DNA from: an uncultured archaeon
GTDB taxonomy: Archaea > Asgardarchaeota > Thorarchaeia > Thorarchaeales > Thorarchaeaceae
NCBI GenBank assembly: GCA_964458565.1
Contig: CAYWJO010000012.1
Span: 1 to 23,278, forward strand
Direction of reading: 5' to 3'
DNA: 23,278 nt
The notes below the pieces were generated by a model. The model did no database searches. It was not told the DNA's origin and saw only the letters and a list, made by a program, of their open reading frames with translations. This document shows, one piece after another, positions 5,062-5,322 of this stretch. The position numbers and the translations under genes are program-made. The stretch's first letter is position 1; each line of letters begins with the position of its first letter.

Positions 5062-5162
5062 TTTAACATTTTTTGATGTAATATTGGAAATTGTTCATCA
5101 TCGAAGTTTCGATTCCATCATGATTCTCTAAGTTGTGTAAGAACATTAGGTGAAAACTGAAA

Positions 5163-5246
5163 ATGATGTACAATGATCCCCTCAACGGTCCAGAAATTCC
5201 TTGGAATACTGAAGATCCATTAAACGGTCCTGAAATTCCTTGGTGA
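5163..5246 (+). CDS. 27-aa micropeptide MMYNDPLNGPEIPWNTEDPLNGPEIPW with duplicated core (candidate signal peptide or RiPP-like precursor)
   Basis: AGGTGA RBS at 5148-5153, ATG at 5163, TGA at 5244-5246. The two 30-nt core copies differ at 4 positions, all synonymous in this frame. Followed by hairpins and a T-tract. Confidence 0.78.
   Translation: MMYNDPLNGPEIPWNTEDPLNGPEIPW
5175..5243 (+). repeat. Direct repeat, 2 x 30 nt with 39-nt period, encoding DPLNGPEIPW
   Basis: gatcccctcaacggtccagaaattccttgg (5175-5204) vs gatccattaaacggtcctgaaattccttgg (5214-5243), 26/30 identical. Confidence 0.95.
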
Positions 5247-5252
5247 AAACAC

Positions 5253-5322
5253 CGAAGCATCTTAACCTGAAAGGATGCTTCGTTGCTCCGAGCGTATGCT
5301 ACGGAGCATTACCTTCTTTTTT
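5253..5322 (+). terminator. Tandem hairpins plus T-tract after the micropeptide gene
   Basis: CGAAGCATC/GATGCTTCG (5253-5261/5274-5282). TGCTCCG-AGC-gtat-GCT-a-CGGAGCA (5284-5308). Then CTTCTTTTTT. Confidence 0.7.

Follow-up and report, generated by a model that had tools for sequence, protein, structure and literature searches.

A stretch of 23,278 nucleotides (nt) from an uncultured archaeon of the Thorarchaeaceae (contig CAYWJO010000012.1; hereafter, the window) contains a 27-codon micropeptide gene at positions 5163–5246 of the plus strand, its TGA stop (5244–5246) included in these coordinates. The product consists of MMYN, the core DPLNGPEIPW, the spacer NTE, and a second DPLNGPEIPW. 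There is high confidence, based on comparative sequence analysis, that this is a translated gene belonging to a family of micropeptides that end in Pro-Trp (PW). As judged by its motif, it is the two-core form, in its genus, of a family that spans the whole archaeal family searched. The micropeptide is probably a small regulatory peptide, and in this group of Asgard archaea its relatives nearly always adjoin the gene for a large Lrp/AsnC-like regulator-type protein.

The window gene

The ATG at 5163 is preceded, 9 nt upstream, by a Shine-Dalgarno-like AGGTGA (5148–5153). Four residues stand ahead of core 1 (5175–5204), and none follow core 2 (5214–5243). The peptide includes six Pro and five Asp or Glu residues, has no basic residue, and carries a net charge of −5. 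It ends in Glu-Ile-Pro-Trp-stop, and has no hydrophobic segment, signal part, or pattern of Cys, Ser, or Thr residues. Consecutive prolines are absent (Pro-Glu-Ile-Pro-Trp); some relatives have Pro-Pro-Glu-Pro-Trp.

Two adjacent stable hairpins (5253–5282 and 5284–5308) begin 7 nt past the stop codon and are followed by the T-tract TTCTTTTTT (5314–5322). The hairpin region folds with a minimum free energy of −31.5 kcal/mol (z −6.1), and none of 200 shuffled sequences folds equally well. Archaeal RNA polymerase terminates at oligo-T, so this tract is read as a likely termination signal. About 100 nt upstream of the ATG lies a perfect 8-3-8 palindrome, TTCATATA-TTC-TATATGAA (5041–5059, both strands). 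This arrangement (palindrome in the promoter region, Shine-Dalgarno site, 27 codons, hairpins, and oligo-T) suggests a stand-alone micro-gene that is very likely translated. Rfam and tRNA scans of the window found no match, and a scan for σ70 promoter and terminator consensus sequences found nothing useful (the consensus set does not cover archaeal promoters).

The two cores form a direct repeat of 30 nt with 87% identity. They differ by four substitutions (CCC/CCA, CTC/TTA, and CCA/CCT), each of which is synonymous; the chance that four random core substitutions would all be silent is P = 0.0012. A tandem repeat of eight residues occurs in 9 of the 35,575 small open reading frames (ORFs) in the genome, and the two cleanest examples are the window gene and the paralogue described below. 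An earlier note on this DNA had placed the ribosome-binding site, the ORF, both hairpins, and the T-tract correctly, and had recognized that all four differences are silent. From these it proposed a translated product whose exact sequence matters, a proposal that the paralogue bears out.

A paralogue under coding selection

A degenerate motif search was run over the window's own genome (G000; 3.7 Mb in 93 contigs). The core unit was found twice more, both times in one 28-codon ORF on contig C11 (G000:C11:13922–14008; locus L001, 1486–1572). This paralogue has the same build as the window gene, and it too has a GTGA element 5′ of the ATG, a strong hairpin (z −4.2), and a T6 run. The two genes can be aligned from start to stop only; their flanks are unrelated. 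Between start and stop, 16 of 81 bases differ, and 11 of these differences are silent. Four residues change, all conservatively: Asn/Asp, Thr/Asn, Glu/Asp, and Ile/Leu. The dN/dS ratio is 0.034, with saturated silent sites (pS 0.72). When the 16 changes were permuted, none of 20,000 placements altered so few residues (P < 5e-5). Ten columns vary among the four core copies in the genome: eight are third codon positions, and two are first positions (one synonymous for Leu, one Ile/Leu).

By this pattern of substitution, the micropeptide sequence is under purifying selection. Moreover, constraint extends over the whole 10-residue core, which is maintained between paralogues with saturated silent sites; judging from the relatives, other genera have entirely different cores. 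At 84–87 nt including the stop, these micropeptide genes lie under gene-calling thresholds, and hence are likely missing from protein databases.

The gene next to the C11 paralogue encodes TrmO, and other neighbours encode fumarase and fumarate-reductase-type proteins. Because the TrmO gene is convergent, the C11 paralogue cannot be the leader of anything, even though it is strongly conserved. Unlike the window copy, it does not adjoin a gene for a large Lrp/AsnC-like protein.

A family of micropeptides in relatives

The earlier note suggested a search for DPLNGPEIPW in related genomes. The exact core was not found outside this genome; synteny, however, revealed a family of PW micro-ORFs with variable core number. 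For the exact core, a degenerate DNA pattern allowing up to two mismatches found no match in 60 relatives, and a protein search of 85 genomes of the archaeal family returned chance matches alone (E ≥ 0.17; unrelated on inspection). Pattern and related-locus searches found no instance in JGI metagenome contigs or viral contigs. A search of one genome per prokaryote species gave one match, antisense within a 674-aa (amino acid) ORF of a GC-rich Thermoplasmata contig, which was rejected as chance.

The family came to light at the loci of homologues of a 657-aa protein encoded in the window. A PW-type micro-ORF of 10–58 codons, rich in Pro and acidic residues, adjoins the 657-aa homologue at 56 of 69 loci. 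The commonest ending at these loci is Pro-Glu-Pro-Trp-stop, and the general pattern is acidic-(x)-Pro-aromatic (x being Ile in the window peptide). For counting, the rule was a small intergenic ORF with [DE]-x(0,1)-P-[WFY] at the stop or at most three residues from it. At the 69 loci, 57 of 1112 small intergenic ORFs fit this rule, spread over 56 loci. The corresponding numbers are 0 of 269 at 29 control loci (those of the 29 best homologues of the seven-transmembrane, or 7TM, gene that follows the window micropeptide gene) and 22 of 7530 in the whole genome of the window. The enrichment is significant with respect to both the control loci (Fisher P 3e-6) and the genome (6e-34). Nor was a repeat micro-ORF found near the 29 best 7TM homologues in relatives. 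Among the 3320 ORFs of at least 80 aa in this genome, Pro-Trp, Pro-Phe, and Pro-Tyr endings are not enriched (2, 8, and 1 versus 1.9, 5.9, and 4.9 expected).

Among 54 clear members, Glu is at position −2 in 51, Pro at −1 in all 54, and Trp at position 0 in 50. The C-terminal Trp, remarked on in the earlier note, is a key feature. The ending Glu-Pro-Trp is present in 50 of the 54 relatives, and some lineages replace Trp by Phe or Tyr. Stop codons are mixed (24 TAA, 15 TGA, and 15 TAG). Most family members are single-core 12–16-mers. Many have GGTGA or GTGA 5–9 nt 5′ of the ATG, as does the C11 paralogue. Structure in the 100 nt after the ORF (z < −2) accompanies 58% of members, compared with 6.5% of background small ORFs. 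Overall, more than 70 related micro-ORFs in other genomes have a common peptide motif and unlike nucleotide sequences.

Two genera illustrate this conservation at closer range. In genus g3, the micro-ORF changes only at wobble positions and at Arg-synonymous first positions; the core is kept, and GGTGA lies 6–8 nt 5′ of the ATG. The same genus (loci L052–L059 and L074) also has a nucleotide-conserved block about 85 nt 5′ of the 657-aa homologue. This block has no wobble pattern, is better conserved than the surrounding coding sequence, and contains a CCCAA...TTGGG hairpin along with an AT-rich, TATA-like stretch; a role as promoter or as 5′ untranslated region element is possible. In genus g6, a hairpin with CGTCC...GGACG arms recurs about 45–60 nt 3′ of the micro-ORF and shows apparent compensatory changes (GTCT/AGAC, GTCCCC/GGGGGC; loci L060, L063, L065, L066, L070–L073, L075, L115, L122, L129, and L132).

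Besides the two two-core genes in the window's genome, two- and three-core genes with unrelated cores are present at loci L069, L070, L076, L077, L136, L137, L138, L141, L145, and L174. In all, relatives have at least 11 multi-core genes. Every unit ends in an aromatic residue, and core copies have been kept identical through 38 silent differences. These comparisons indicate repeated origins of two- and three-core genes from different cores, a state that recurs under selection. (The earlier note had picked out the tandem cores as a feature in their own right.)

The window gene is nonetheless distinct from its relatives. Its genus has acidic-hydrophobic-Pro-Trp where relatives in other genera have Glu-Pro-Trp; it lies downstream of the partner gene, with a second copy at an unrelated locus; and it shares a palindrome, unique in the genome, with the next gene. 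No description of this family was found in the literature on Asgard small ORFs or on archaeal leader peptides and aIF5A.

The partner protein

The gene for the 657-aa protein (2987–4960, plus strand) ends 203 nt upstream of the co-oriented micropeptide gene. A Pfam scan of the protein gave no match. The AlphaFold2 (AF2) model (pLDDT 85.5, pTM 0.82) comprises N-terminal β-rich domains (residues 10–155), a helical middle domain (160–365), and a C-terminal half. For this half, the best matches in the Protein Data Bank (Foldseek) are the siroheme decarboxylase NirDL (4ch7, E 2.9e-5) and many Lrp/AsnC regulators, indicating that it holds two tandem modules, each a helix-turn-helix (HTH) plus a RAM domain. 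The effectors known for RAM domains are amino-acid-like.

A separate model of the N-terminal 370 residues gave no Foldseek match at E ≤ 0.001. VIA-align matched residues 195–320 to zincin peptidase catalytic domains (Z ≤ 6.0) and also returned small β-barrels (Z about 4), both similarities being too weak for an assignment. The HExxH motif is absent from the 657-aa protein family. The helical middle domain (residues about 195–320) might be a peptide-binding pseudo-peptidase domain. Prediction of a complex between the 657-aa protein and the 27-aa peptide gave no verdict (score 0.02, for a peptide that is below the method's 30-residue calibration) and weighs neither for nor against binding.

Homologues are present in 74 of 85 related genomes, in one to four copies each. 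Sampling of the phylum placed them in 71 of 76 genomes of the archaeal family but in just 1 of the 224 genomes outside it, and that one match may be misbinned. The window also encodes a 551-aa paralogue (11026–12681, minus strand) that has only the Lrp-like C-terminal part in common with the 657-aa protein (hidden Markov model positions 285–655). No PW micro-ORF was found beside it.

Other genomic settings

Across 86 genomes, the Pro-Glu-Pro-Trp-stop pattern occurs at about 87 sites, of which about 32 are at 657-aa loci (matched by position). Of 20 fetched sites away from those loci, 19 are micro-ORFs of the same style. Some are divergent from the gene for a different AsnC-HTH protein of about 580 aa (L157, L159, L164), whose family is unrelated to the 657-aa family. 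Others are flanked by the gene for a protein of about 70 aa, whose C-terminus is acidic-Pro-x-Pro-Phe, and that for an 82-aa protein, with an MFS transporter gene following; still others are near PGK or ScpB genes. Neighbours at family loci are variable (Arf-like GTPase, DUF1512, rubrerythrin, Ig-like proteins, PGK, ScpB), and no gene other than the Lrp-like one is linked consistently. The Arf-family GTPase genes at the relatives' loci are in keeping with an Asgard archaeon.

The window's genome has four family members at four loci: the window gene (contig C12), the C11 paralogue, and one each on contigs C26 and C66. The C26 member (14929–14967) is in the 70-aa/82-aa setting. The C66 member, a 15-codon ORF that ends in Glu-Trp-Pro-Trp (11351–11398, minus strand), is divergent from an operon encoding a 535-aa AsnC-HTH protein, a homologue of the 580-aa AsnC-type protein. 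Homologues of this 535-aa protein in genomes G070, G030, and G071 likewise have divergent PW micro-ORFs. Residue −2 in all four members is Ile, Leu, or Trp, versus Glu in nearly all members elsewhere. This concerted change at four loci suggests a shared reader of the peptide tail.

The C26 locus forms a mini-array (G000:C26:14576–15254): the protein of about 70 aa, here ending in Cys-Glu-Asp-Pro-x-Pro-Phe; a PW micro-ORF of 12–14 codons; and the 82-aa protein. It recurs at L160, L161, L163, L165, L168, and L176. The MFS transporter gene comes next in relatives, and a 479-aa ORF in G000. Given the Pro-x-Pro-Phe end of the larger protein, the tail motif is also present on a folded small protein. 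Elsewhere in the genome, a 14-codon ORF ending in Asp-Gly-Pro-Trp (G000:C80:4945–4989, minus strand) lies 7 nt upstream of a 461-aa gene that appears, from its P-loop N-terminus, to be KaiC-like. Asp-Gly-Pro-Trp micro-ORFs also precede 657-aa homologues in genus g10 (L143, L146).

The neighbourhood in the window

The 7TM membrane protein gene (5427–6137, plus strand) is co-oriented with the peptide gene, 181 nt downstream, and the two have the palindrome in common. A second, imperfect copy (5344–5364) lies 63–87 nt upstream of the 7TM gene. The palindrome's 18-nt core occurs at two places only in the 3.7-Mb genome (the 5041–5059 copy and 5347–5364), and the window has three palindrome matches versus 0.08 expected. 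Given these two unique places, the palindrome may be a shared operator; the copy 5′ of the peptide gene is a candidate operator or promoter element.

Of 85 related genomes, 77 have a member of the 7TM family. In the window, the 7TM gene is paired with a gene for an MBL hydrolase (5427–7023), and this pair is duplicated on contig C7 (L180, 2118–3727). One protein on contig C1 (L179, 1108–2760) joins a 7TM domain to an intramembrane protease domain of the Rce1-like (CPBP) type. The Rce1-like gene of genus g8 is separate; it adjoins the 7TM gene, beside multi-core peptide genes. The fusion hints that the 7TM protein may be a protease partner.

Farther along are genes for ThiF and GH3 (7102–9726). 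The pair recurs in genome G076 and GH3 in G077 (L081, 2904–5343; L084, 1118–2656), as part of a semi-conserved neighbourhood. In genome G076, GH3, ThiF, Rce1-like, and 7TM genes stand beside the 657-aa homologue and its micro-ORF; G077 likewise has GH3. The window has ThiF, GH3, the MBL hydrolase, and a penicillin-amidase-type hydrolase within 4.5 kb. ThiF, GH3, and MBL genes are absent from most family loci and from the C11 copy. The window ThiF protein is a bare 307-aa E1-like domain, in which a domain scan detected no extra peptide-binding region.

How the peptides may act

Given the link to large Lrp/AsnC-like proteins, a regulatory role, either in trans or as a leader peptide, is more plausible than that of a secondary-metabolite precursor. 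The favoured reading, held at about even confidence, is that the peptide acts in trans as a partner of Lrp/AsnC-like proteins. In this model the peptide, either whole or cut after each Trp, would bind the large tandem Lrp/AsnC-like protein as its partner or ligand. The variable 6–8 residues would give specificity to each pair, and the invariant C-terminal (acidic)-x-Pro-Trp would be read by a factor common to all family members in a genome. Two cores could provide a double dose, or bivalent binding to a protein with two Lrp-like modules. The direction of control would run from peptide to protein, the Lrp-like protein acting in turn on the palindrome common to the peptide gene and the downstream 7TM/MBL genes.

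Action in trans is favoured for four reasons. First, the linkage is independent of orientation and extends to two Lrp-like families that are unrelated to each other: the micro-ORF is convergent with or downstream of the 657-aa homologue in G063, G065, G011, and G066, and downstream in the window. Second, stand-alone copies lacking a downstream target are strongly conserved. Third, the whole core is constrained within a lineage yet differs between lineages. Fourth, cores have been duplicated again and again.

A broader version is more tentative, a possibility rather than an expectation. The archaeal family may run a gene-encoded oligopeptide signalling code, with several peptides of 12–30 residues per genome. 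The variable part of each would address one Lrp/AsnC-type receptor; the common acidic-x-Pro-Trp end would be read by one co-evolving shared factor; and core duplication would tune dose or valency. Co-evolution of the shared factor would account for the genus-wide shift at −2, from Glu to a hydrophobic residue, at all four loci.

Several observations count against action in trans. In 52 of the 54 relatives, the micro-ORF is upstream of the large gene, on the same strand, 19–228 nt away (measured to the longest possible start of the large gene). Moreover, a structured element usually stands between the upstream co-oriented micro-ORF and the large gene, as with leader peptides. About a fifth of members have two or three residues past the Trp, and inner cores are not C-terminal, so a free Trp carboxylate is no universal requirement unless the peptides are trimmed. 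The Lrp-like protein nearest to the C11 copy is encoded by a 156-aa AsnC-type gene, 3.5 kb away. Finally, the enzyme NirDL also uses the Lrp-like fold, so fold alone does not establish DNA binding.

Known peptide-regulator pairs provide a parallel for action in trans. In the RRNPP pairs of Firmicutes and phages (Rap-Phr, PlcR-PapR, Rgg-SHP, ComR-ComS, AimR-AimP), a tiny peptide gene is likewise coupled to a regulator gene. RRNPP regulators are cytoplasmic, the informative part of the peptide is its C-terminal end, as here, and rapid divergence between lineages is likewise combined with tight constraint within them. However, the partner here is Lrp/AsnC-like (by AF2 model and Foldseek) rather than a TPR protein, the peptide lacks a hydrophobic segment for export or as a signal, and the host is an archaeon. 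The C-terminal half of the partner resembles the Lrp/AsnC (feast/famine) regulators and NirDL/AhbAB, with the tandem arrangement of NirDL, but the protein has about 360 extra N-terminal residues. To our knowledge, a gene-encoded peptide has not been described as an effector of an Lrp/AsnC protein.

The chief rival, judged less likely than action in trans, is a cis-acting leader or pausing peptide. Slow translation at Pro-Trp-stop (dependent on aIF5A, on Pro or Trp supply, or on release factor) would set the position of the ribosome. This in turn would decide between termination at the hairpins and oligo-T and run-through into the 7TM gene (window) or the Lrp-like gene (most relatives). The prevailing upstream placement and the frequent structure after the ORF both fit this scheme, as does the concentration of conservation in the last three or four codons by the stop. 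In the window, the hairpins and T-tract stand between the ORF and the 7TM gene, and the first hairpin is within reach of a terminating ribosome. In relatives, however, the hairpin mostly starts about 25–55 nt past the stop (read by eye), beyond that reach. Residues trailing the Trp, and inner cores, do no harm to a leader.

Precedents lend a leader further support. In the upstream coding region of AZIN1, the pause that responds to polyamines and eIF5A is at a Pro-Pro-Trp motif, which also ranks among the top EF-P-dependent pauses (PMC8705083). PepNL, a peptide of 14 residues, arrests termination at a UGA stop (PMC11890864), and attenuation is altered by EF-P-dependent pausing (PMC5021804). Leader and arrest peptides such as TnaC, PepNL, and AZIN1 resemble the family in length (12–30 codons), stop-proximal conservation, Pro followed by Trp, the downstream hairpin plus T-tract, and the usual place upstream of a regulated gene. 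In the window peptide, however, there is one Trp codon per core and no Pro-Pro. The tandem cores and the replacement of Trp by Phe or Tyr are also unlike these peptides. This replacement, together with the mixed stop codons, speaks against both a sensor of Trp codons and a switch based on UGA read-through. In RNA folds of the window gene region, no strong antiterminator alternative was seen, and the coding part lacks structure (z +0.9). The Pro-rich MgtL is another regulatory leader peptide of this kind.

Two further points count against a leader. Copies at L076, L077, L079, L142, L157, L159, and L164, as well as on C11, have no co-oriented downstream gene yet are conserved. Moreover, a peptide that interacts with the ribosome tunnel, which is universally conserved, would not be expected to show constraint on ten lineage-specific residues.

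A third reading, quite improbable, takes the gene for the precursor of a processed, possibly modified, exported signal, similar to a RiPP (ribosomally synthesized and post-translationally modified peptide) or pheromone. Cores would be freed by cleavage after Trp; ThiF and GH3 might activate the C-terminal carboxylate; and membrane proteins of the locus, such as the 7TM protein, might process or sense the product. The recurring multi-core build, with an aromatic end on every unit, is compatible with this. Cyanobactins, yeast α-factor, and fungal dikaritins likewise have tandem identical cores with short spacers. Genomic company also provides some encouragement: the enzymes clustered within 4.5 kb in the window, those at the G076 and G077 loci, the Rce1-like and 7TM genes beside the g8 multi-core genes, the 7TM–Rce1-like fusion, and the one locus type with a micro-ORF ahead of an MFS transporter.

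The peptides themselves argue otherwise. Unlike those precursors, they have no leader or follower, recognition sequences, or dibasic sites, and the single-core majority needs no processing. No gene for a modifying enzyme shows the consistent linkage of the Lrp-like gene, the C11 copy sits among genes of unrelated kinds (fumarase, TrmO, fumarate reductase), and the scan of ThiF showed its E1-like domain alone. RiPP- or cyanobactin-like processing, along the lines proposed in the earlier note, is not supported. A PEP-CTERM/exosortase sorting signal (Pro-Glu-Pro, helix, basic cluster) was also considered and rejected: the peptides end right after Pro-Trp, with no transmembrane helix.

Finally, it is most improbable that a repeated DNA or RNA element, or the antisense 65-aa ORF (5063–5260), explains the conservation: the antisense frame shares wobble positions with the sense frame and keeps 20 of 26 residues between paralogues, but it changes more residues (as the earlier note had said) and lacks a conserved start or stop in the paralogue, whereas the sense frame keeps 23 of 27 residues, changes conservatively, and retains start and stop exactly; the coding RNA, for which the note had raised base-pairing as an alternative, is unstructured and without Rfam match; and the relatives are alike in peptide motif rather than nucleotides.

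Implications

Few small ORFs in this archaeal family are placed as consistently, or selected as strongly, as these. The genome studied here is the most informative case so far, since it contains copies uncoupled from the partner gene, and these separate action in trans from action as a leader better than the upstream arrangement does.

If the peptides are pausing leaders, archaea would have an equivalent of the eukaryotic upstream ORFs with Pro-Pro-Trp and eIF5A sensitivity. If instead they are ligands of Lrp/AsnC-like proteins, they would add, in the lineage closest to eukaryotes, a layer of regulation so far not known among archaea. And were the signalling code to prove true, archaea would have their first peptide-ligand/transcription-factor system, and the Lrp/AsnC fold a new class of effector.

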